This document shows positions 2,873 through 12,583 of a DNA stretch of 64,000 nt, piece after piece. A program made the translations under genes and the position numbers. Every line of letters starts with the position of its first letter. Position 1 is the first letter of the stretch. The DNA is from Escherichia coli (GTDB lineage: Bacteria; Pseudomonadota; Gammaproteobacteria; Enterobacterales; Enterobacteriaceae), in assembly GCF_003334785.1 (NCBI RefSeq), contig NZ_QOWV01000002.1; one strand, given 5' to 3'. The notes below the pieces were generated by a model. The model did no database searches and was not told the origin of the DNA. It was given only the letters and a program-made list of their open reading frames with translations.

Positions 2873-4564
2873 ATGAAAACGCTGCTGATTATTGACGCTA
2901 ATCTCGGTCAGGCACGCGCCTATATGGCGAAGACCCTGCTGGGCGCGGCGGCGCGAAAAGCAAAACTGGAAATCATCGACAATCCGAACGACGCTGAAAT
3001 GGCGATTGTTCTCGGTGATTCCATCCCGAACGACAGCGCGCTGAACGGTAAAAATGTCTGGCTGGGCGATATTTCCCGGGCAGTTGCGCACCCTGAGCTG
3101 TTCCTGAGTGAAGCCAAAGGCCATGCGAAACCTTACACTGCGCCGGTCGCTGCGACAGCACCAGTTGCCGCCAGCGGTCCGAAACGCGTAGTTGCGGTGA
3201 CTGCTTGCCCGACTGGCGTAGCACACACCTTTATGGCGGCTGAAGCCATTGAAACCGAAGCGAAAAAACGTGGCTGGTGGGTGAAAGTTGAAACCCGTGG
3301 TTCTGTTGGCGCGGGTAATGCAATCACTCCCGAAGAAGTCGCAGCAGCGGATCTGGTGATTGTGGCGGCAGATATCGAAGTGGATCTGGCGAAATTTGCT
3401 GGTAAACCGATGTATCGTACCTCTACCGGTCTGGCGCTGAAGAAAACCGCGCAGGAACTGGATAAAGCGGTTGCTGAAGCAACGCCGTATGAACCGGCGG
3501 GCAAAGCTCAAACGGCGACCACTGAAAGTAAGAAAGAGAGTGCAGGCGCATACCGTCACTTGCTGACGGGCGTTTCTTACATGCTGCCGATGGTCGTTGC
3601 AGGTGGTCTGTGTATCGCGCTTTCTTTTGCTTTTGGTATCGAAGCGTTTAAAGAGCCGGGTACGTTGGCTGCGGCGCTGATGCAGATTGGTGGTGGTTCA
3701 GCCTTTGCGCTGATGGTGCCGGTACTGGCAGGTTATATTGCCTTTTCCATTGCCGATCGTCCGGGCCTCACTCCGGGTCTGATTGGCGGTATGCTGGCGG
3801 TCAGCACCGGTTCTGGCTTCATTGGTGGTATTATTGCGGGCTTCCTGGCTGGTTACATTGCGAAGTTAATCAGTACGCAATTGAAACTGCCACAGAGTAT
3901 GGAGGCGCTGAAACCGATCCTGATCATTCCGCTAATTTCCAGTCTGGTGGTCGGTCTGGCGATGATCTACCTGATCGGTAAACCAGTTGCTGGCATTCTC
4001 GAAGGGCTGACTCACTGGCTGCAGACCATGGGGACTGCGAATGCGGTTCTGCTGGGGGCGATCCTCGGTGGCATGATGTGTACTGACATGGGCGGTCCGG
4101 TAAACAAAGCAGCGTACGCATTCGGTGTGGGTCTGCTGAGTACTCAAACCTATGGCCCGATGGCGGCGATTATGGCGGCAGGTATGGTGCCACCGCTGGC
4201 AATGGGTCTGGCAACAATGGTGGCGCGTCGCAAATTCGACAAAGCGCAGCAGGAAGGTGGCAAAGCCGCTCTGGTATTGGGACTGTGCTTCATTTCGGAA
4301 GGTGCAATTCCGTTTGCTGCTCGTGATCCGATGCGTGTGCTGCCGTGCTGTATCGTGGGTGGGGCGCTGACTGGCGCAATCTCAATGGCGATTGGTGCGA
4401 AACTGATGGCACCGCACGGTGGTCTGTTTGTTCTGCTGATCCCTGGCGCTATTACGCCGGTATTGGGTTACCTGGTAGCAATTATTGCCGGTACGCTGGT
4501 GGCGGGTTTGGCCTATGCCTTCCTGAAACGTCCGGAAGTGGACGCAGTAGCGAAAGCAGCGTAA
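2873..4564 (+). CDS. fruA: Fructose PTS enzyme IIB'BC
   Basis: 563-aa ORF, duplicated IIB-like N-terminus followed by polytopic IIC membrane domain; RBS AGGAGAGG upstream. Confidence 0.95.
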   Translation: MKTLLIIDANLGQARAYMAKTLLGAAARKAKLEIIDNPNDAEMAIVLGDSIPNDSALNGKNVWLGDISRAVAHPELFLSEAKGHAKPYTAPVAATAPVAASGPKRVVAVTACPTGVAHTFMAAEAIETEAKKRGWWVKVETRGSVGAGNAITPEEVAAADLVIVAADIEVDLAKFAGKPMYRTSTGLALKKTAQELDKAVAEATPYEPAGKAQTATTESKKESAGAYRHLLTGVSYMLPMVVAGGLCIALSFAFGIEAFKEPGTLAAALMQIGGGSAFALMVPVLAGYIAFSIADRPGLTPGLIGGMLAVSTGSGFIGGIIAGFLAGYIAKLISTQLKLPQSMEALKPILIIPLISSLVVGLAMIYLIGKPVAGILEGLTHWLQTMGTANAVLLGAILGGMMCTDMGGPVNKAAYAFGVGLLSTQTYGPMAAIMAAGMVPPLAMGLATMVARRKFDKAQQEGGKAALVLGLCFISEGAIPFAARDPMRVLPCCIVGGALTGAISMAIGAKLMAPHGGLFVLLIPGAITPVLGYLVAIIAGTLVAGLAYAFLKRPEVDAVAKAA

Positions 4565-4720
4565 TAAAAGGTGTGTTACAGGGCAGAAATTTCCTGTCCT
4601 GTAACATTTGATGAGCGCAAAGAGAATGACCGGTTTGTGAATGTAATTTTATGAATTTAAATGGTTTTATCTTTCAGTAGAAACTTCAAACGTTCATCAA
4701 ACACTCAGGTTATTTCCTCA

Positions 4721-4748
4721 AGGGCAGATTATTTTCTGCCCTTTTTTA
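4721..4748 (+). terminator. Rho-independent terminator downstream of fruA
   Basis: GGGCAGA-loop-TCTGCCC stem followed by TTTTTTATT. Confidence 0.7.
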
Positions 4749-4986
4749 TTGTTCTGTTCTGTGCATCCCGTCACAAATTCCTCGCTTTTGTAATTCAGGC
4801 ATTTAATCGCATTTTGTGAGCCTGCTCAAATCTGCCCATTTTGCCTCTCTGGCGGTAATTTACTTTACGTAAAACATGCATACTATGAGCACATGTTTAA
4901 ATATGAACACATGTTTAAACCGTCTTTGCAGTATCTATATTCTTGTGGATTGACAGGGTTGGTAATTTTTTACCAGAGGACGTGCT

Positions 4987-5928
4987 ATGCGCGAAAAGGA
5001 TTATGTCGTAATTATAGGTTCGGCGAATATTGATGTCGCCGGATATTCACATGAATCATTAAATTATGCGGATTCAAATCCAGGTAAAATAAAATTTACG
5101 CCTGGTGGAGTAGGGCGCAATATTGCACAAAACCTGGCGTTGCTGGGTAACAAAGCCTGGCTACTGAGCGCCGTAGGCAGTGATTTTTATGGTCAATCGC
5201 TGCTAACGCAAACCAATCAATCTGGCGTTTATGTCGATAAATGCCTGATTGTGCCGGGAGAAAATACGTCGAGTTATTTATCATTACTCGATAATACCGG
5301 TGAAATGCTGGTTGCTATAAATGACATGAATATTAGCAACGCTATTACAGCTGAATATCTCGCACAGCACGGTGAATTTATTCAGAGGGCAAAGGTCATT
5401 GTCGCGGACTGTAATATCAGTGAAGAGGCACTGGCATGGATTCTGGATAATGCCGCCAACGTACCCGTATTTGTCGATCCGGTTTCGGCATGGAAATGTG
5501 TCAAAGTGCGCGACCGTCTAAATCAGATCCACACTCTCAAGCCAAACCGCCTTGAAGCGGAAACCCTGAGTGGGATTGCGCTGTCAGGGCGTGAAGATGT
5601 GGCAAAAGTTGCTGCCTGGTTCCATCAACATGGCCTGAACCGACTGGTATTGAGCATGGGCGGCGACGGCGTTTATTACAGCGATATCAGCGGTGAAAGT
5701 GGCTGGTCTGCGCCGATCAAAACCAATGTTATTAATGTTACCGGAGCGGGCGATGCCATGATGGCGGGACTTGCTTCGTGTTGGGTAGACGGAATGCCGT
5801 TTGCCGAATCTGTTCGTTTCGCACAGGGATGTTCGTCAATGGCGCTCTCCTGTGAATACACCAATAACCCCGATTTATCGATTGCCAACGTTATATCGTT
5901 AGTGGAGAACGCAGAATGTCTGAATTAA
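4987..5928 (+). CDS. psuK: Pseudouridine kinase (pfkB family)
   Basis: 313-aa ORF MREKDYVVIIGSANIDV...; pfkB motifs; overlaps psuG by 13 nt. Confidence 0.9.
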   Translation: MREKDYVVIIGSANIDVAGYSHESLNYADSNPGKIKFTPGGVGRNIAQNLALLGNKAWLLSAVGSDFYGQSLLTQTNQSGVYVDKCLIVPGENTSSYLSLLDNTGEMLVAINDMNISNAITAEYLAQHGEFIQRAKVIVADCNISEEALAWILDNAANVPVFVDPVSAWKCVKVRDRLNQIHTLKPNRLEAETLSGIALSGREDVAKVAAWFHQHGLNRLVLSMGGDGVYYSDISGESGWSAPIKTNVINVTGAGDAMMAGLASCWVDGMPFAESVRFAQGCSSMALSCEYTNNPDLSIANVISLVENAECLN

Positions 5929-6854
5929 AAATTTCCCCTGAATTATTACAAATTTCCCCGGAAGTGCAGGACGCTTTAAAAAACAAAAAACCGGTTGTGG
6001 CGCTGGAATCGACCATTATTTCTCACGGGATGCCGTTCCCACAAAATGCCCAGACCGCAATTGAAGTTGAAGAAACTATTCGTAAACAGGGCGCTGTACC
6101 TGCCACGATCGCCATTATTGGCGGCGTGATGAAAGTGGGGTTAAGCAAAGAAGAAATTGAATTACTGGGTCGTGAAGGGCATAACGTGACCAAAGTTAGT
6201 CGTCGCGATTTACCTTTTGTTGTTGCCGCCGGAAAAAATGGCGCAACCACTGTGGCTTCAACGATGATTATTGCGGCGCTTGCCGGAATTAAAGTATTTG
6301 CCACCGGGGGAATTGGTGGTGTGCATCGCGGGGCGGAACATACCTTCGATATTTCTGCCGATTTGCAAGAACTGGCAAATACTAATGTCACCGTTGTTTG
6401 TGCCGGGGCGAAATCTATTCTCGATTTAGGATTAACCACTGAGTATTTAGAAACCTTCGGTGTGCCGTTAATTGGCTATCAGACTAAAGCGCTGCCTGCG
6501 TTTTTCTGCCGCACCAGCCCGTTTGACGTCAGCATTCGTCTCGACAGCGCCAGCGAAATTGCCCGTGCAATGGCGGTGAAATGGCAAAGCGGTCTGAACG
6601 GTGGCCTCGTGGTAGCGAACCCGATCCCGGAACAGTTTGCTATGCCGGAACACACTATCAATGCGGCGATCGATCAGGCGGTAGCTGAAGCTGAAGCTCA
6701 GGGAGTCATTGGTAAAGAAAGTACGCCATTCCTGCTGGCGCGCGTTGCTGAACTGACCGGCGGTGACAGCCTGAAATCCAACATCCAGCTGGTGTTCAAC
6801 AACGCCATTCTGGCGAGCGAAATTGCCAAAGAATATCAGCGTCTCGCGGGTTAA
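5916..6854 (+). CDS. psuG: Pseudouridine-5'-phosphate glycosidase
   Basis: 312-aa ORF; operon partner of psuK (yeiN/yeiC arrangement). Confidence 0.9.
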   Translation: MSELKISPELLQISPEVQDALKNKKPVVALESTIISHGMPFPQNAQTAIEVEETIRKQGAVPATIAIIGGVMKVGLSKEEIELLGREGHNVTKVSRRDLPFVVAAGKNGATTVASTMIIAALAGIKVFATGGIGGVHRGAEHTFDISADLQELANTNVTVVCAGAKSILDLGLTTEYLETFGVPLIGYQTKALPAFFCRTSPFDVSIRLDSASEIARAMAVKWQSGLNGGLVVANPIPEQFAMPEHTINAAIDQAVAEAEAQGVIGKESTPFLLARVAELTGGDSLKSNIQLVFNNAILASEIAKEYQRLAG

Positions 6855-6947: not shown

Positions 6948-8198
6948 ATGGATATAATGAGAAGTGTTGTGGGGATGGTGGTGTTACTGGCAATAGCATT
7001 TCTGTTGTCAGTGAATAAAAAGAGCATCAGTTTGCGCACGGTTGGAGCCGCACTGCTGCTGCAAATCGCTATTGGTGGCATCATGCTCTACTTCCCACCG
7101 GGAAAATGGGCAGTAGAACAGGCGGCATTAGGCGTTCATAAAGTGATGTCTTACAGTGATGCCGGTAGCGCCTTCATTTTTGGTTCGCTGGTTGGGCCGA
7201 AAATGGATGTCCTGTTTGACGGTGCGGGTTTTATCTTCGCCTTTCGCGTACTTCCGGCGATTATTTTCGTTACTGCGCTCATCAGTCTGCTGTACTACAT
7301 TGGCGTGATGGGGCTGCTGATTCGCATCCTTGGCAGCATTTTCCAGAAAGCCCTCAACATCAGCAAAATCGAATCTTTTGTTGCGGTTACTACTATTTTC
7401 CTCGGGCAAAATGAGATCCCGGCGATCGTTAAACCGTTTATCGATCGCATGAATCGCAACGAGTTGTTTACCGCAATTTGTAGCGGGATGGCGTCCATTG
7501 CTGGTTCGATGATGATTGGTTATGCCGGAATGGGCGTACCAATTGACTACCTGTTAGCGGCATCGCTGATGGCGATCCCTGGCGGGATTTTGTTTGCACG
7601 TATTCTTAGCCCGGCAACCGAGCCTTCGCAGGTCACATTTGAAAATCTGTCGTTCAGCGAAACGCCGCCAAAAAGCTTTATCGAAGCGGCGGCGAGCGGT
7701 GCGATGACCGGGCTAAAAATCGCCGCTGGTGTGGCGACGGTGGTAATGGCGTTTGTCGCAATTATTGCGCTGATCAACGGCATTATCGGCGGAATTGGCG
7801 GCTGGTTTGGTTTCGCCAATGCCTCTCTGGAAAGTATTTTTGGCTATGTGCTGGCACCGCTGGCGTGGATCATGGGTGTGGACTGGAGTGATGCCAATCT
7901 TGCGGGTAGCCTGATTGGGCAGAAACTGGCGATTAACGAATTCGTCGCTTACCTGAGTTTCTCCCCATACCTGCAAACGGGCGGCACGCTGGAAGTGAAA
8001 ACCATTGCGATTATCTCCTTTGCGCTTTGTGGTTTTGCTAACTTTGGTTCTATCGGTGTTGTCGTTGGCGCATTTTCGGCTATTTCGCCAAAACGCGCGC
8101 CGGAAATCGCCCAGCTTGGTTTACGGGCGCTGGCAGCAGCAACGCTTTCCAACCTGATGAGTGCGACTATTGCCGGGTTCTTTATTGGTCTGGCGTAA
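6948..8198 (+). CDS. psuT: Concentrative nucleoside transporter (NupC family), putative pseudouridine transporter
   Basis: 416-aa polytopic membrane ORF; close paralog of the ORF at 10138-11388. Confidence 0.9.
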   Translation: MDIMRSVVGMVVLLAIAFLLSVNKKSISLRTVGAALLLQIAIGGIMLYFPPGKWAVEQAALGVHKVMSYSDAGSAFIFGSLVGPKMDVLFDGAGFIFAFRVLPAIIFVTALISLLYYIGVMGLLIRILGSIFQKALNISKIESFVAVTTIFLGQNEIPAIVKPFIDRMNRNELFTAICSGMASIAGSMMIGYAGMGVPIDYLLAASLMAIPGGILFARILSPATEPSQVTFENLSFSETPPKSFIEAAASGAMTGLKIAAGVATVVMAFVAIIALINGIIGGIGGWFGFANASLESIFGYVLAPLAWIMGVDWSDANLAGSLIGQKLAINEFVAYLSFSPYLQTGGTLEVKTIAIISFALCGFANFGSIGVVVGAFSAISPKRAPEIAQLGLRALAAATLSNLMSATIAGFFIGLA

Positions 8199-8268: not shown

Positions 8269-8928
8269 TTACTGCATCATCCCGGAGAATTTATTCTCCG
8301 GGTCCATCTCCAGCGCCAGTCCTGACAACTGCTTTCTGTTTTTAATGAGATATCCTTTCTTGCTTTTAATTAATAAACCGTCGTGAATGAACTGCGCGAG
8401 AACATATAAAAGATGTCGATAAGAAACGCCTAAATACTCTGCCGCTTGCGTATGCTTTTCGTGATAAAGATCACCTTCCTGCGAGAGTAATATAAATGCT
8501 GCCAGGCGATTCACTAACGGAAATGATTGATTCTGAGTTAAAGAAACAATATTACGATAATTTTTATGACTTAAGGTGACGCAGAGTTTTCGTAAAAATA
8601 GCGTGTCGTTTAATAACAGCGGACGGTAATGTTTCATAGGGAGCGCAAGGCACCAACACTCTTCAATAGCCTGCACCGCACGCGGTTCATGGTCTTTATC
8701 GATTAACTCAATCTCGCCAATAAAACAGGGGGCGGCAAAGAAATCGATCAGCGACACGCGACCATTAGCTAGCGTGGCGTAAAGCCTGGCGCGGCCTCGC
8801 GTCAGGTAAAACAGCCAGGACGGCTGTTGCCCTTCCTGCACAATGTAGTCACGCGCTAAAAAATGAAACAGCCGCGTATCGGCTGAAACATCCGTTAAAA
8901 AGCAATCCTTAAACGCGGATTCACTCAT
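8269..8928 (-). CDS. yeiL: CRP/FNR-family transcriptional regulator
   Basis: ORF with cNMP-binding-like N-terminus and C-terminal HTH; chose ATG at 8928 (MSESAFKD...), since the longer frame to 8967 begins with GTG. Confidence 0.85.
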
Positions 8929-9096
8929 CAATTGCTGCTTAAGATCATTATTGTGGATTTCTTTCACGATGTTTATCCGCTATGAGATTTCTCATATTTA
9001 GCATACGTACGCTGTTGTTAAGATTCAATCATCGGCCCGGTCGAATTTTCTTTGCTGTAGAAAAAATAACGCAACTGGAAACAGAGGAAATAAACA

Positions 9097-10038
9097 ATGG
9101 AAAAGAGAAAAATTATTCTGGATTGTGATCCGGGTCATGATGATGCTATTGCTATAATGATGGCGGCGAAACATCCGGCAATAGATTTATTAGGCATCAC
9201 TATTGTAGCGGGTAATCAGACGCTTGATAAAACATTAATTAATGGCCTGAATGTTTGCCAGAAACTGGAGATTAATGTTCCGGTTTATGCGGGGATGCCG
9301 CAGCCCATTATGCGTCAACAAATCGTTGCCGATAATATTCACGGTGAAACCGGACTGGATGGCCCGGTATTCGAGCCGCTGACCCGCCAGGCAGAAAGCA
9401 CTCATGCGGTGAAATATATCATTGATACCCTGATGGCAAGCGATGGCGATATCACTCTGGTGCCGGTTGGTCCGCTTTCAAATATCGCGGTGGCAATGCG
9501 TATGCAACCCGCGATCCTGCCCAAAATCCGTGAAATTGTGCTAATGGGCGGCGCTTACGGTACAGGCAACTTCACGCCATCTGCCGAGTTCAACATCTTT
9601 GCCGACCCGGAAGCCGCACGCGTAGTGTTCACCTCCGGCGTTCCATTAGTGATGATGGGCCTCGATCTCACCAACCAGACCGTTTGCACCCCGGACGTGA
9701 TTGCTCGGATGGAAAGGGCAGGCGGCCCCGCCGGAGAGCTGTTCAGCGACATCATGAACTTCACTCTCAAAACGCAGTTCGAAAACTACGGCCTTGCTGG
9801 CGGCCCGGTGCACGACGCCACCTGCATCGGTTATCTGATTAACCCTGATGGCATTAAAACCCAGGAGATGTACGTCGAAGTGGACGTCAACAGTGGCCCT
9901 TGCTATGGGCGTACCGTCTGCGACGAGCTGGGCGTTCTTGGCAAGCCCGCCAATACCAAAGTCGGCATCACTATTGATACAGACTGGTTCTGGGGATTAG
10001 TCGAAGAGTGCGTGCGCGGCTACATCAAAACCCATTAA
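9097..10038 (+). CDS. rihB: Pyrimidine-specific ribonucleoside hydrolase
   Basis: 313-aa ORF with N-terminal DCDPGHDDA nucleoside hydrolase signature. Confidence 0.93.
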
Positions 10039-10137
10039 GTGTTGATAACAAGCCGGGCCGGTATCGCAAGATGCAGGCCTGGCTATTTCTGATGGGCAGA
10101 AAGCCGTCGCCCAATATGACATGAAGAGATAATCACT

Positions 10138-11388
10138 ATGGATGTCATGAGAAGTGTTCTGGGAATGGTGGTATTGCTGACGATTGCGTTTTTACTGTCA
10201 GTAAACAAGAAGAAGATCAGCCTGCGTACCGTTGGCGCGGCGTTAGTGTTACAGGTCGTGATTGGCGGCATTATGCTTTGGTTACCGCCAGGGCGTTGGG
10301 TCGCTGAAAAAGTCGCTTTTGGCGTGCATAAAGTGATGGCGTACAGCGACGCGGGTAGCGCATTTATCTTCGGTTCTCTGGTCGGACCGAAAATGGATAC
10401 CTTATTTGATGGTGCAGGATTTATCTTTGGTTTCAGGGTGTTACCGGCAATTATCTTCGTCACCGCGCTGGTGAGTATTCTCTACTACATCGGTGTGATG
10501 GGGATTTTAATTCGAATTCTCGGCGGTATCTTCCAGAAAGCATTAAATATCAGCAAGATCGAGTCATTCGTCGCGGTCACCACCATTTTCCTCGGGCAAA
10601 ACGAAATTCCGGCAATCGTCAAACCCTTTATCGATCGTCTGAATCGCAATGAATTATTTACAGCGATTTGTAGTGGCATGGCCTCGATTGCTGGTTCGAC
10701 AATGATTGGTTACGCCGCACTGGGCGTGCCTGTGGAATATCTGCTGGCGGCATCATTAATGGCGATCCCTGGCGGGATCTTGTTTGCCCGCCTGTTAAGC
10801 CCGGCAACGGAATCTTCGCAGGTTTCCTTTAATAACCTCTCTTTCACCGAAACACCGCCAAAAAGCATTATTGAAGCCGCTGCGACAGGGGCAATGACCG
10901 GGCTGAAAATCGCCGCAGGTGTGGCAACAGTGGTGATGGCATTTGTTGCAATAATTGCGTTGATTAACGGTATTATCGGCGGCGTTGGTGGCTGGTTTGG
11001 TTTTGAACATGCCTCGCTGGAGTCCATTTTAGGTTACCTGCTGGCTCCACTGGCGTGGGTGATGGGTGTGGACTGGAGTGATGCGAATCTTGCCGGGAGT
11101 TTGATTGGACAGAAACTGGCAATAAATGAATTTGTCGCTTATCTCAATTTCTCACCCTATCTGCAAACGGCTGGCACTCTCGATGCTAAAACTGTGGCGA
11201 TTATTTCCTTCGCGTTGTGCGGTTTCGCTAACTTTGGTTCTATCGGGGTGGTGGTGGGGGCGTTTTCTGCGGTTGCGCCACACCGTGCGCCGGAAATCGC
11301 CCAGCTTGGTTTACGGGCGCTGGCGGCGGCGACGCTTTCCAACTTGATGAGTGCGACCATTGCCGGGTTCTTTATTGGTTTAGCTTGA
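10138..11388 (+). CDS. nupX: Nucleoside permease (NupC family)
   Basis: 416-aa membrane ORF, roughly 85 percent identical by eye to psuT (6948-8198). Confidence 0.9.
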   Translation: MDVMRSVLGMVVLLTIAFLLSVNKKKISLRTVGAALVLQVVIGGIMLWLPPGRWVAEKVAFGVHKVMAYSDAGSAFIFGSLVGPKMDTLFDGAGFIFGFRVLPAIIFVTALVSILYYIGVMGILIRILGGIFQKALNISKIESFVAVTTIFLGQNEIPAIVKPFIDRLNRNELFTAICSGMASIAGSTMIGYAALGVPVEYLLAASLMAIPGGILFARLLSPATESSQVSFNNLSFTETPPKSIIEAAATGAMTGLKIAAGVATVVMAFVAIIALINGIIGGVGGWFGFEHASLESILGYLLAPLAWVMGVDWSDANLAGSLIGQKLAINEFVAYLNFSPYLQTAGTLDAKTVAIISFALCGFANFGSIGVVVGAFSAVAPHRAPEIAQLGLRALAAATLSNLMSATIAGFFIGLA

Positions 11389-11494: not shown

Positions 11495-12583
11495 TTACAC
11501 CATTGGCACTAATGAAAGCGCGTTATCGGCAGACAGGGTAGGGTTGTTTAAGCTGCCGCTGGCGCGCGAAATTGCCGCGCAGGCTACCGCAAAACGGGCG
11601 CTGTCGCGGAAACTGTATCCTTCAAGAAAGCTATATACCAGGCCCGCCATAAAACCATCGTCAGCACCAAAACTGTCTACTGTCGTATGCGCTGGCGCGG
11701 TCAGCAAAAATTGTTCTCCATCCTTTTCGCTGCAATAAACTGACTCATCGGGCAAATAAACAAACAGTTGCTGAACACCTTGCTGATGCAATGCATTCAC
11801 TGCGGTATTACGGTCAGCATCGCTGGTGATCGCCTGTCCCCATAAAATTTCCAGCTCCGGTAAAGTGGGTTTCAGGGTGTGAATATGCACCAGCCAGTGT
11901 TTGATTTTGCCCGCTTTGAATTCTGAAACGGTATCGACAAACACCGGGATTTCATCAGCGAGGGTAAAGACCCATTCCAGCGCCTCGGCTGTCAGGTTGC
12001 AATCAGCCAGTACCACGCCCGCATGACGAAGTAAATCGCGCGACCCGTTCAGTAGTTGCGGTGTCAACTGTTCCAGCAGATGGGTATCGTTAATCGCCAG
12101 CACGGTTTGATCGTCTCGATTGGCAATTGCCAGATACGTCGATGTGCTTTGACCATGCAAACGAACGCAGCCGGAGACATTCACGCCGGCACGGCGCGTT
12201 TCTTCCAGGAGCATTTCGCCATAAAAGTCATCGCCAATCACTGAAAGCAAATGGACGTCACGGCCTAACAGCGCCAGATTGTGGGCGATGTTGCGTCCCA
12301 CGCCGCCCGCTGAGCAATGAATTGTACCGGGATGAGAAGCCGATTGCGGGTAACGGATATCCGCCATCCCGCGAATATCCATATTGATTGTCCCCACCAC
12401 TACGCAGTATTCCTGCTCGGTGAGAATGTAACCTTTGCCTTTAATCCGGCCTTTGCGCATTAAATCCATAATATGCGCCGCAACGCGCGAACGGCTGATT
12501 TGCAGCATGTCCGCAATTTCGTTCTGCTGAATCAGCGGGTTACGCCGTAAAATTGCAAGGATCTCCTTTTCCCGGTTATTCAT
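11495..12583 (-). CDS. yeiI: Putative sugar/nucleoside kinase with N-terminal HTH domain (pfkB family)
   Basis: 362-aa ORF; N-terminal HTH (MNNREKEILAILRRNPLIQQNEIADML...) fused to a pfkB kinase domain paralogous to psuK (GGVGRNIAHNLALLG). Confidence 0.88.
   Translation of the reverse strand: MNNREKEILAILRRNPLIQQNEIADMLQISRSRVAAHIMDLMRKGRIKGKGYILTEQEYCVVVGTINMDIRGMADIRYPQSASHPGTIHCSAGGVGRNIAHNLALLGRDVHLLSVIGDDFYGEMLLEETRRAGVNVSGCVRLHGQSTSTYLAIANRDDQTVLAINDTHLLEQLTPQLLNGSRDLLRHAGVVLADCNLTAEALEWVFTLADEIPVFVDTVSEFKAGKIKHWLVHIHTLKPTLPELEILWGQAITSDADRNTAVNALHQQGVQQLFVYLPDESVYCSEKDGEQFLLTAPAHTTVDSFGADDGFMAGLVYSFLEGYSFRDSARFAVACAAISRASGSLNNPTLSADNALSLVPMV

Follow-up and report, generated by a model that had tools for sequence, protein, structure and literature searches.

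BirA, a biotin ligase with an N-terminal winged helix, is, like NadR and PutA, a bifunctional enzyme-repressor. The protein that concerns us here, YeiI of Escherichia coli, resembles all three in that an N-terminal DNA-binding domain is fused to an enzyme domain and in that such proteins are encoded with or beside the pathway that they would control; the enzyme domain of a YeiI-type protein would likewise sense a metabolite. It differs from them in its sensor fold, which is PfkB (ribokinase-like), and in that PsuK and YeiI apparently divide the two roles between them in E. coli. We know of no transcription factor for which a PfkB-fold sensor has been described. Since the pathway in question, breakdown of pseudouridine by psuKGT, is catabolic, the ligand should be an inducer, unlike the corepressor of BirA. 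In other bacteria the gene of the fused HTH-PsuK protein comes first in its operon and follows boxes of the kind described below, which implies autoregulation.

Three further families invite comparison. The ROK repressors (NagC, Mlc, Bacillus XylR) join an HTH to a sensor of sugar-kinase fold in which catalysis has been lost or changed, with active paralogues in the same genome, and their operators, in some cases paired, overlap the promoter. The GADD that YeiI carries in place of GAGD is a parallel to this; however, the ROK fold is ASKHA rather than PfkB, the operator sequences are unrelated and no ROK profile matches YeiI. Operators of the DeoR/GlpR type are short A/T-rich palindromes with TGTT..AACA ends that lie in tandem and overlap a catabolic promoter dependent on CRP. 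The psuK locus shares the type of palindrome, the tandem layout and the catabolic promoter, but its unit is 5-2-5 and not 5-6-5, the spacing between its boxes varies among lineages, and YeiI has an HTH_24 domain rather than HTH_DeoR. Finally, Lrp/AsnC (FFRP) dimers bind short A/T-rich palindromes, often in arrays. YeiI shares their Pfam winged-helix type, HTH_24, but lacks the RAM domain (AsnC_trans_reg) and has PfkB instead.

The literature that we searched names no regulator of pseudouridine catabolism (psuKGT), and describes no transcription start, operator or regulator of psuK. It likewise holds no study of YeiI function, the protein being listed among uncharacterised sugar kinases or predicted transcription factors. 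As judged from sequence, the cis-element at psuK would be an ordinary operator pair, and the trans-acting factor that we propose would belong to a class undescribed in the papers and structures searched.

A tandem repeat at the psuK promoter

The window (the whole 64-kb stretch of DNA analysed here) is of the E. coli K-12 type. It carries the genes fruK, fruA, psuK, psuG, psuT, yeiL, rihB, nupX and yeiI in this order, and its fruA-psuK intergenic region (4565-4986) is identical to that of MG1655; RefSeq annotation of identical DNA agrees with the names that a first-pass annotation of the sequence had given to fruA and psuK. That annotation had also reported a 13-nt motif occurring twice at 18-bp spacing downstream of an AAACATG arm, and its coordinates prove exact. 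The sequence CACATGTTTAAA is found at 4890-4901 and 4908-4919, with no other mismatch-free copy in the 64-kb window; together with the preceding G/A the copies span 4889-4901 and 4907-4919, 18 bp from start to start, and AAACATG lies where it had been placed (Table 1). Both copies are contained in a tandem repeat of contiguous 18-bp units, TATGAGCACATGTTTAAA / TATGAACACATGTTTAAA, at 4884-4901 / 4902-4919 (17/18 identical). This larger repeat around CACATGTTTAAA had been missed by the first-pass annotation. Tandem duplications with a period of at least 18 and at most one mismatch were absent from 300 first-order Markov random sequences of 64 kb, against one in the real window, and the repeat is therefore real and not a product of chance. 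As looser versions of the motif occur elsewhere in the window at chance-level frequency, the signal belongs to the psuK promoter locus and not to a window-wide repeat family.

Table 1. Positions in the window of the promoter elements, conserved islands and genes discussed in the text
Feature	Coordinates	Strand	Description
fruA	2873-4564		RefSeq annotation of identical DNA
Island 1	4814-4828		TTGTGA-N6-TCA in the enteric alignment
CRP-like site	4815..4830	.	TGTGAgcctgcTCAAA; centre 4822.5, ~-70.5 from the inferred start (class I distance)
Island 2	4859-4863		TTTAC in the enteric alignment
-35 hexamer	4859..4864	+	TTTACT; TTTAC invariant in the enteric alignment
Island 3	4872-4886		AAACA..GC, then TA..AT in the enteric alignment
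Upstream arm	4872..4878	+	AAACATG; conserved AAACA half-site-like element in the promoter spacer
-10 hexamer	4881..4886	+	TACTAT; 16-bp spacer from -35; TA..AT invariant in the enteric alignment
Two head-to-tail 18-bp units	4884..4919	+	form taken by the boxes in K-12-type Escherichia
Box 1 (island 4)	4887..4898	.	GAGCACATGTTT, imperfect 12-bp palindrome RAACA-YR-TGTTY; RARCA-YR-TGTTY in the enteric alignment; abuts -10, spans the inferred start
Box 2 (island 5)	4905..4916	.	GAACACATGTTT, second palindrome, 18 bp downstream of box 1; ~+13 to +24; GAACA-YR-TGYTY in the enteric alignment
Palindrome / predicted 5'-UTR hairpin	4960..4975	+	TGGTAA-TTTT-TTACCA; directly before the Shine-Dalgarno AGAGGA
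psuK	4987..5928	+	pseudouridine kinase without DNA-binding domain; first gene of psuK-psuG-psuT, the operon under this promoter
yeiI	11495..12583	-	candidate trans-acting factor; HTH_24 winged helix + PfkB

While the exact repeat is thus present, the 13-nt direct repeat did not hold up as the unit: what is conserved is a 12-bp palindrome, RAACA-NN-TGTTY, occurring twice. By this comparison the functional unit appears to be the palindrome, here called a box, and the exact direct repeat a derived state of K-12-type Escherichia. The half-sites can alternatively be read as TGTTY-N6-GAACA. The AAACATG arm could be a degenerate third half-site; the 12-mer at this position, AAACATGCATAC, agrees with the box consensus at only 6/10 positions when read directly. 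Searches of the 64-kb window with the exact 12-mer, with GAACAYRTGTTY and with TGTTYN6GAACA gave chance-level counts and no other intergenic match. No box was found before yeiI or nfo, or elsewhere in the window, and so there is no second target in it that would corroborate the motif and no evidence for a local regulon with yeiL, rihB, nupX, yeiI and nfo.

The promoter itself could be placed with the help of an adaptive mutation. In 5 of 7 mouse-gut populations a single A-to-C change appeared between psuK and fruA; its authors assign it to the psuK promoter region, report that in vitro growth was altered and state that intergenic changes can alter psuK expression (PMC9509342). An A-to-C change in the same intergenic region was found in three long-term stationary-phase populations (PMC7858067). 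The gut mutation is listed at NC_000913.2 position 2257444 (PMC9509342, supplementary data 7 and 8; the numbering was verified via the lrp P44S entry of the same table), which is NC_000913.3 position 2259422 and, on the opposite strand, window position 4861. It reads as T to G at the third base of the -35 hexamer, converting TTTACT to TTGACT, a classical up-mutation. This mutation defines the -35 element and sets box 1 over the start, and from the conserved hexamers together with this one up-mutation we infer that transcription begins near 4893. Box 1 starts one base past the -10. With the boxes at or just downstream of the presumed start, repression is the likely mode of action. CTTTACT is also found at the -35 in Yersinia, Serratia, Photorhabdus and Xenorhabdus, and the -10 of other lineages is TATTAT or TATCAT. 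A second promoter returned by a consensus scan, TTTAAA-16-TATATT (4914-4941), was rejected as the main promoter: outside Escherichia this region shows no conservation, and one Escherichia genome lacks 11 bp between the two hexamers. The upstream TTTACT/TACTAT pair is conserved and is where the adaptive mutation falls.

The first-pass annotation had recognised no consensus for CRP, Cra, Fur or CytR in the repeat, and we concur. The repeat lacks TGTGA-N6-TCACA, and the notion that it is itself a CRP site was dropped, as no register across the boxes matches that sequence. A CRP-like site is present ~70 bp upstream of the presumed start. Its TTGTGA-N6-TCA is invariant in the 12 sequences of the enteric alignment (core TGTGA-N6-TCAAA), and the Pasteurella operon has a comparable TGTGC-N6-TCACA in its upstream region. 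CRP probably assists the psuK promoter from this site near -70.5; a published table of CRP footprints has no entry for psuK or fruA in its main text (PMC12871828). Close to the gene, the arms of the 4960-4975 palindrome change together, to TGGCAA..TTGCCA in Citrobacter and in a second E. coli haplotype, with a G.U intermediate in E. albertii. RNAalifold was run on this hairpin, and indels misaligned its arms.

Conservation of the boxes from Escherichia to distant operons

Both repeat units are unchanged in an alignment of six diverse E. coli. Two units were counted in 6/6 E. coli, a small sample against 4232 matching genomes, and in three other Escherichia species-level genomes, with no slippage-type variation in copy number. 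To the psuK upstream regions of the latter three we added those of E. albertii, two Buttiauxella, four Citrobacter and a Raoultella-labelled MAG. In this enteric alignment the fruA-psuK intergenic region is mostly diverged, and five islands are invariant or nearly so (Table 1): the core of the CRP-like site, the -35, the AAACA element with the -10, and the two boxes. Outside K-12-type Escherichia box 2 reads GAACATGTGCTC or GAACATATGTTC. A second E. coli haplotype of the locus, ~81% identical in psuK and present in 1201 of 5426 complete genomes, has GAACATGTGTTT as box 1 and GAACACGTGCTC as box 2 at unchanged spacing. The exact repeat was not seen in this haplotype or in E. albertii, Citrobacter and Buttiauxella, all of which keep both boxes between diverged flanks. 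The position of the boxes relative to the -35 and -10 is constant throughout Escherichia spp., E. albertii, Citrobacter, Buttiauxella, the Raoultella-labelled MAG and the second E. coli haplotype.

More distant operons carry the motif too. In Yersinia, Serratia, Xenorhabdus, Photorhabdus, Pasteurella, Shewanella, Aliivibrio, a Burkholderiaceae MAG and the gammaproteobacterium L029 the motif lies upstream of operons that combine an HTH-PfkB gene with psuG; the HTH-PfkB gene is the first of the operon and a nucleoside transporter usually follows. The DNA-binding domain is, in these organisms, part of the pseudouridine kinase itself. When the enteric-clade motif AAACA-NN-TGTTT was sought upstream of eight distant operons, matches of at least 9/10 numbered 9 in 2.76 kb of upstream regions and 8 in 102 kb of flanks, a ~40-fold enrichment (Fisher-combined P ~1e-6 against dinucleotide shuffles). 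The proximal pair is spaced by 18 bp in Yersinia, Serratia, Photorhabdus, Pasteurella and the enteric clade, and by 19 bp in Shewanella, Aliivibrio and L029. Across 12 lineages the invariant positions are C4, G9, T10 and T11 in box 1 and A2, A3, C4, A5, T8 and G9 in box 2, while the central two bases vary; invariant half-sites around a variable centre are the pattern expected of a dimer that contacts two half-sites. In the Enterobacterales among the distant operons the pair lies downstream of a CTTTACT -35-like element and an A/T-rich -10. Absence of the motif from orthologous promoters had been named by the first-pass annotation as grounds for abandoning its reading; the boxes are instead found in 12 lineages, from Escherichia to Shewanella/Aliivibrio, just past the -10.

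In Yersinia and Serratia the annotated start codon falls within box 1 (ATGTTTAAA). The true start is probably an ATG 27 nt downstream, a choice that would restore the family N-terminus MTSREKQIL. Yersinia, Serratia, Xenorhabdus and Photorhabdus have an additional isolated site, ACCAAACA-NN-TGTTTGGT, ~250-285 bp upstream, and an orphan Xenorhabdus paralogue has an isolated upstream site as well. The placement of these distal sites suggests an auxiliary operator, possibly one acting through DNA looping. Examples of lone 12-bp palindromes are ACCAAACACTTGTTTGGT (Yersinia) and CAACACTTGTTT (Burkholderiaceae MAG).

YeiI and other explanations for the boxes

The first-pass annotation had taken the repeat for a site bound by a local psu-operon regulator that is dimeric or binds in tandem, and every computational test that we ran favours such a site. 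The boxes are very probably a conserved protein operator, on the evidence of their conservation and enrichment. As to what binds them, YeiI and YeiL were among the candidates offered. YeiI gained from the comparison through its synteny, its shared winged helix and the fused homologues that head psu operons, and YeiL lost, since its locus block is missing where the boxes are kept.

YeiI consists of HTH_24 (residues 1-48, E = 2.3e-10) followed by PfkB (residues 58-348, E = 2.5e-67) and is 38-40% identical to PsuK. Its N-terminal region matches HTH_24, HTH_11 and MarR-type profiles, with no match to HTH_DeoR, and most of the full-length homologues among the matches listed have the same HTH-PfkB architecture. 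An HTH and an enzyme fold are thus present in one polypeptide, and a conserved palindrome at the pathway promoter co-occurs with this candidate regulator. The recognition-helix region (ISRSxVAxHIMxL) hardly differs between YeiI and the fused kinases, which makes a single DNA specificity plausible. In every genus examined whose psuK is without an HTH, yeiI is syntenic with psuKGT. E. albertii, Citrobacter, Buttiauxella and the Raoultella-labelled MAG have psuK-psuG-psuT with convergent yeiI and nfo directly after it and no yeiL-rihB-nupX; in E. coli psuKGT and yeiI are parted only by the insertion of yeiL-rihB-nupX, whose NupX protein is 87-89% identical to PsuT.

The PfkB domain of YeiI has diverged at its catalytic motifs. 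An alignment of the YeiI clade (E. coli, an 85%-identical cluster, Enterobacter, Salmonella, Pseudocitrobacter, [Enterobacter] lignolyticus, Entomohabitans, Phytobacter and Affinibrenneria) has GADD or GADE in all orthologues at the place of the PfkB GAGD, a motif retained by PsuK and the fused kinases. The clade also has NDT for NDM and a diverged ASxPG-type loop as against the DSNPGK substrate loop, both of which are canonical in PsuK and the fused kinases. A psuK mutant is stated to be unable to use pseudouridine as carbon source (PMC12506659). The degenerate motifs of YeiI and this phenotype together suggest that the roles were split once the gene had been duplicated. Palindromic sites fit the finding that EcPsuK is a homodimer (PMC9247573), and the lid of PsuK-type kinases is reported to form the dimer interface and to move upon substrate binding (PMC9061257). 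None of the PDB matches is a solved structure with HTH and PfkB together, all of them starting at residue 54-61.

From these associations YeiI is probably the protein that binds the boxes. The link is one of guilt by association, and another factor common to these genomes would be possible in its place. Two dimers at 18-bp spacing would not share a face of the helix, and this is not the arrangement most often seen with cooperative binding.

A role for YeiL, which belongs to the CRP/FNR family and is encoded just downstream of psuT, would have it bind as a dimer to an FNR-like 5-4-5 site, TGAAC-N4-GTTYA. Its gene adjoins psuKGT in E. coli, the boxes can be written in this register on direct reading, though its flanking T and A are conserved only within the enteric clade, and the protein is poorly characterised, with one regulated gene and one binding site according to RegulonDB as cited in PMC9308461. 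We nevertheless regard YeiL as a very unlikely binder: E. albertii, Citrobacter, Buttiauxella and the Raoultella-labelled MAG lack yeiL-rihB-nupX at this locus and yet keep both boxes, and no CRP/FNR-family gene lies at the locus itself next to the eight distant psu operons (Yersinia, Serratia, Pasteurella, Shewanella, Aliivibrio and others). The boxes might also be parsed differently, with the central TGTTT-N6-GAACA (4894-4909) as the true site, a DeoR-family operator of the GlpR/DeoR type to which the outer half-sites would be accessory. TGTTY-N6-GAACA is present in all enteric sequences, and the C. werkmanii version, ATGTTCGATATTGAACAT, is close to what we take to be the GlpR consensus, WATGTTCGWT.AWCGAACATW. 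In addition, glpR is a recurrent target in the same evolution experiments (PMC7858067, PMC9509342). Yet the gap between the boxes varies, being N6 in ten lineages (Enterobacterales and Pasteurella) and N7 in Shewanella, Aliivibrio and L029, whereas the N2 within a box never does, and the 12-bp palindromes also occur singly. The CG dinucleotides of the GlpR half-site are missing in E. coli and the candidate regulator YeiI has no DeoR-family HTH, so that this parsing, too, strikes us as improbable.

Because two similar palindromes are necessarily complementary, an RNA hairpin comes free with the pair, and this bears on the idea that the element acts as RNA, a 5'-terminal stem-loop (4895-4920) stabilising psuK mRNA or modulating its translation, with the DNA palindromes incidental. 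Folding of the inferred transcript does predict an 11-bp hairpin right at its 5' end (z = -2.15 for the 118-nt leader), and predicted hairpins between box 1 and box 2 have -8 to -14 kcal/mol throughout Escherichia, Citrobacter and Buttiauxella. Against this, the predictions give no stable hairpin (-1.8 to -3.7 kcal/mol, z ~-1 or weaker) in Serratia, Photorhabdus, Pasteurella and Aliivibrio, where the boxes are kept; the distal single boxes ~250 bp upstream in Yersinia-type promoters are not explained by an RNA hairpin; and a variable YR centre between invariant half-sites is the signature of a protein site. A permissive Rfam search of 4000-5600 returned one sub-threshold chance match inside fruA, none in the intergenic region and nothing above gathering thresholds. 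We therefore consider an RNA element unlikely as the explanation of the boxes; to go by the predicted folds, the pair may have an additional, lineage-specific role at the mRNA 5' end in the enteric clade. There is hardly any room for a functionless 18-bp duplication left by neutral slippage. Its units are contiguous and 17/18 identical, and the exact repeat is restricted to K-12-type Escherichia, as such an origin would have it; but copy number and sequence are invariant in the six diverse E. coli, lineages without the exact repeat still carry two boxes in the same register, and the motif is enriched upstream of distant psu operons. At most, box 2 has been homogenised towards box 1 in one lineage.

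A proposed repressor of pseudouridine catabolism

Taking the locus as a whole, we favour the reading of the repeat as a pair of palindromic operators, 18 bp from centre to centre, that serve a winged-helix repressor acting as a dimer, most probably YeiI. In the model that we propose, psuK is transcribed from a weak sigma-70 promoter, probably with assistance from CRP. One YeiI dimer on each box would cover the start and the initial transcribed region and block either open-complex formation or promoter escape, so keeping psuKGT off. Binding of pseudouridine or its 5'-phosphate to the PfkB domain would then change the geometry of the dimer, reorient the winged helices and release the DNA. That YeiI is a pseudouridine-released repressor of psuKGT is, in our judgement, evenly balanced.

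The model extends to the history of the family. In many Proteobacteria a single fused HTH-PfkB protein at the head of the operon would serve as both kinase and autoregulator. In the Escherichia/Citrobacter/Enterobacter lineage a duplication would have split these roles: PsuK would be a kinase only, and YeiI would have kept the HTH and gained a degenerate catalytic motif, becoming sensor and repressor. We see about an even chance that winged-helix-PfkB proteins form a transcription-factor family widespread in Proteobacteria, with a self-repressing bifunctional pseudouridine kinase as ancestor and YeiI as a pseudokinase descendant turned dedicated sensor and repressor.

The analysis ties a cis-element to a specific candidate protein and makes predictions at the level of single bases. 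It also offers a mechanistic reading for one of the most recurrent adaptive mutations of mouse-gut E. coli (PMC9509342), namely a better -35 at a promoter guarded by boxes; if the model is true, it would explain the repeated selection in the gut of an up-mutation that bypasses a weak, repressed promoter. A repressor-operator pair that responds to pseudouridine could be used as a biosensor in strains for pseudouridine production. If borne out, the model would further give a function to yeiI, a long-standing y-gene, add a PfkB-fold sensor to the enzyme-derived types of transcription factor, and show clearly how a protein that was both kinase and regulator can give rise to an enzyme and a separate pseudoenzyme regulator.

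The psuK promoter and its natural variants

The adaptive A-to-C mutation between psuK and fruA that recurs in the mouse gut maps to window position 4861, inside the inferred -35 hexamer of psuK (4859-4864), where it converts TTTACT to TTGACT. It arose in 5 of 7 mice in a published study of gut evolution (PMC9509342), and long-term stationary-phase evolution likewise yielded a psuK/fruA intergenic A-to-C change (PMC7858067); these papers describe it solely as an intergenic or promoter-region SNP. Upstream of this promoter lies a putative CRP site, TTGTGAgcctgcTCAAATCT, whose TGTGA and TCA parts are unchanged in an alignment of 12 enteric sequences. The Pasteurella operon is also preceded by a similar CRP-like site.

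In E. coli, psuK and its promoter exist as two deeply diverged haplotypes of ~81% nucleotide identity (window 4987-5928 against 5545-6942 of L028, the locus of strain L725), the minority form being present in 1201 of the 5426 complete genomes. Yet the neighbouring fruK product is the same protein (WP_000091263.1) in both, which suggests an old recombination import. In the minority form the promoter hexamers are better ones (-35 TTTACA, -10 TATTAT). Several E. coli strains have the psuK promoter or 5' end broken or deleted by IS1 insertion, as seen at L027 (strain L1_E925, 6042-6810) and in the genome-search matches H61 and H67; the break in L1_E925 falls at the window equivalent of 4880, just 5' of the -10 hexamer and of box 1, the first of the paired candidate operator palindromes.

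Inverted repeats before psuK and after fruA

The arms of the palindrome TGGTAA-TTTT-TTACCA are altered jointly, to TGGCAA..TTGCCA, in Citrobacter and in the second E. coli haplotype, and E. albertii carries a G.U intermediate. These paired changes suggest a 5'-UTR hairpin or, alternatively, a second protein site; the sequences in the RNAalifold run on this element include indels. The two hairpins that follow fruA share AGGGCAGA and had no match in Rfam. They could form a double terminator, or mark where a small RNA derived from the 3'-UTR ends.

Positions of sequence features near psuK and in related loci
Feature	Sequence	Position	Remark
CRP-like site TTGTGAgcctgcTCAAATCT	window	4814-4833	~70 bp upstream of inferred psuK start
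Palindrome TGGTAA-TTTT-TTACCA	window	4960-4975	directly 5' of psuK Shine-Dalgarno
Hairpin 1, inverted repeat	window	4574-4606	16-nt arms; immediately past fruA stop codon
Hairpin 2, AAGGGCAGA..TCTGCCCTT + T-run	window	4720-4752	clean terminator-like stem; ~150 bp beyond hairpin 1
yeiL, rihB, nupX block	window	8269-11388	
ACCAAACA-NN-TGTTTGGT	L018 (Yersinia)	~6753	
ACCAAACA-NN-TGTTTGGT	L019 (Serratia)	~6745	
ACCAAACA-NN-TGTTTGGT	L022 (Xenorhabdus/Photorhabdus set)	~4716	
ACCAAACA-NN-TGTTTGGT	L025 (same set)	~4725	
ACCAAACA-NN-TGTTTGGT	L030 (same set)	~3718	

Fused HTH-PfkB genes and the yeiL-rihB-nupX block

In the Yersinia and Serratia loci (6995-7030 in each) the HTH-PfkB gene, which encodes the fused winged-helix and kinase homologue, is annotated from a start codon (giving MFKNKQVSI...) that falls within operator box 1. 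Translation probably begins instead 27 nt further downstream, at an ATG whose resulting N-terminus agrees with that of all other family members. Yersinia, Serratia, Xenorhabdus and Photorhabdus have a lone extended palindrome, ACCAAACA-NN-TGTTTGGT, ~250-285 bp upstream of this gene, and the palindrome also precedes an orphan Xenorhabdus paralogue; it could serve as an auxiliary operator for looping. Another conserved element, CTTACGATC-N-TTCTC, is found between this palindrome and the promoter.

The psuT-yeiI interval is without yeiL-rihB-nupX in E. albertii, Citrobacter, Buttiauxella and a Raoultella-labelled MAG, and NupX is 87-89% identical to PsuT at the protein level. These features suggest an inserted segment that carries a transporter duplicate and is specific to E. 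coli and its nearest relatives.
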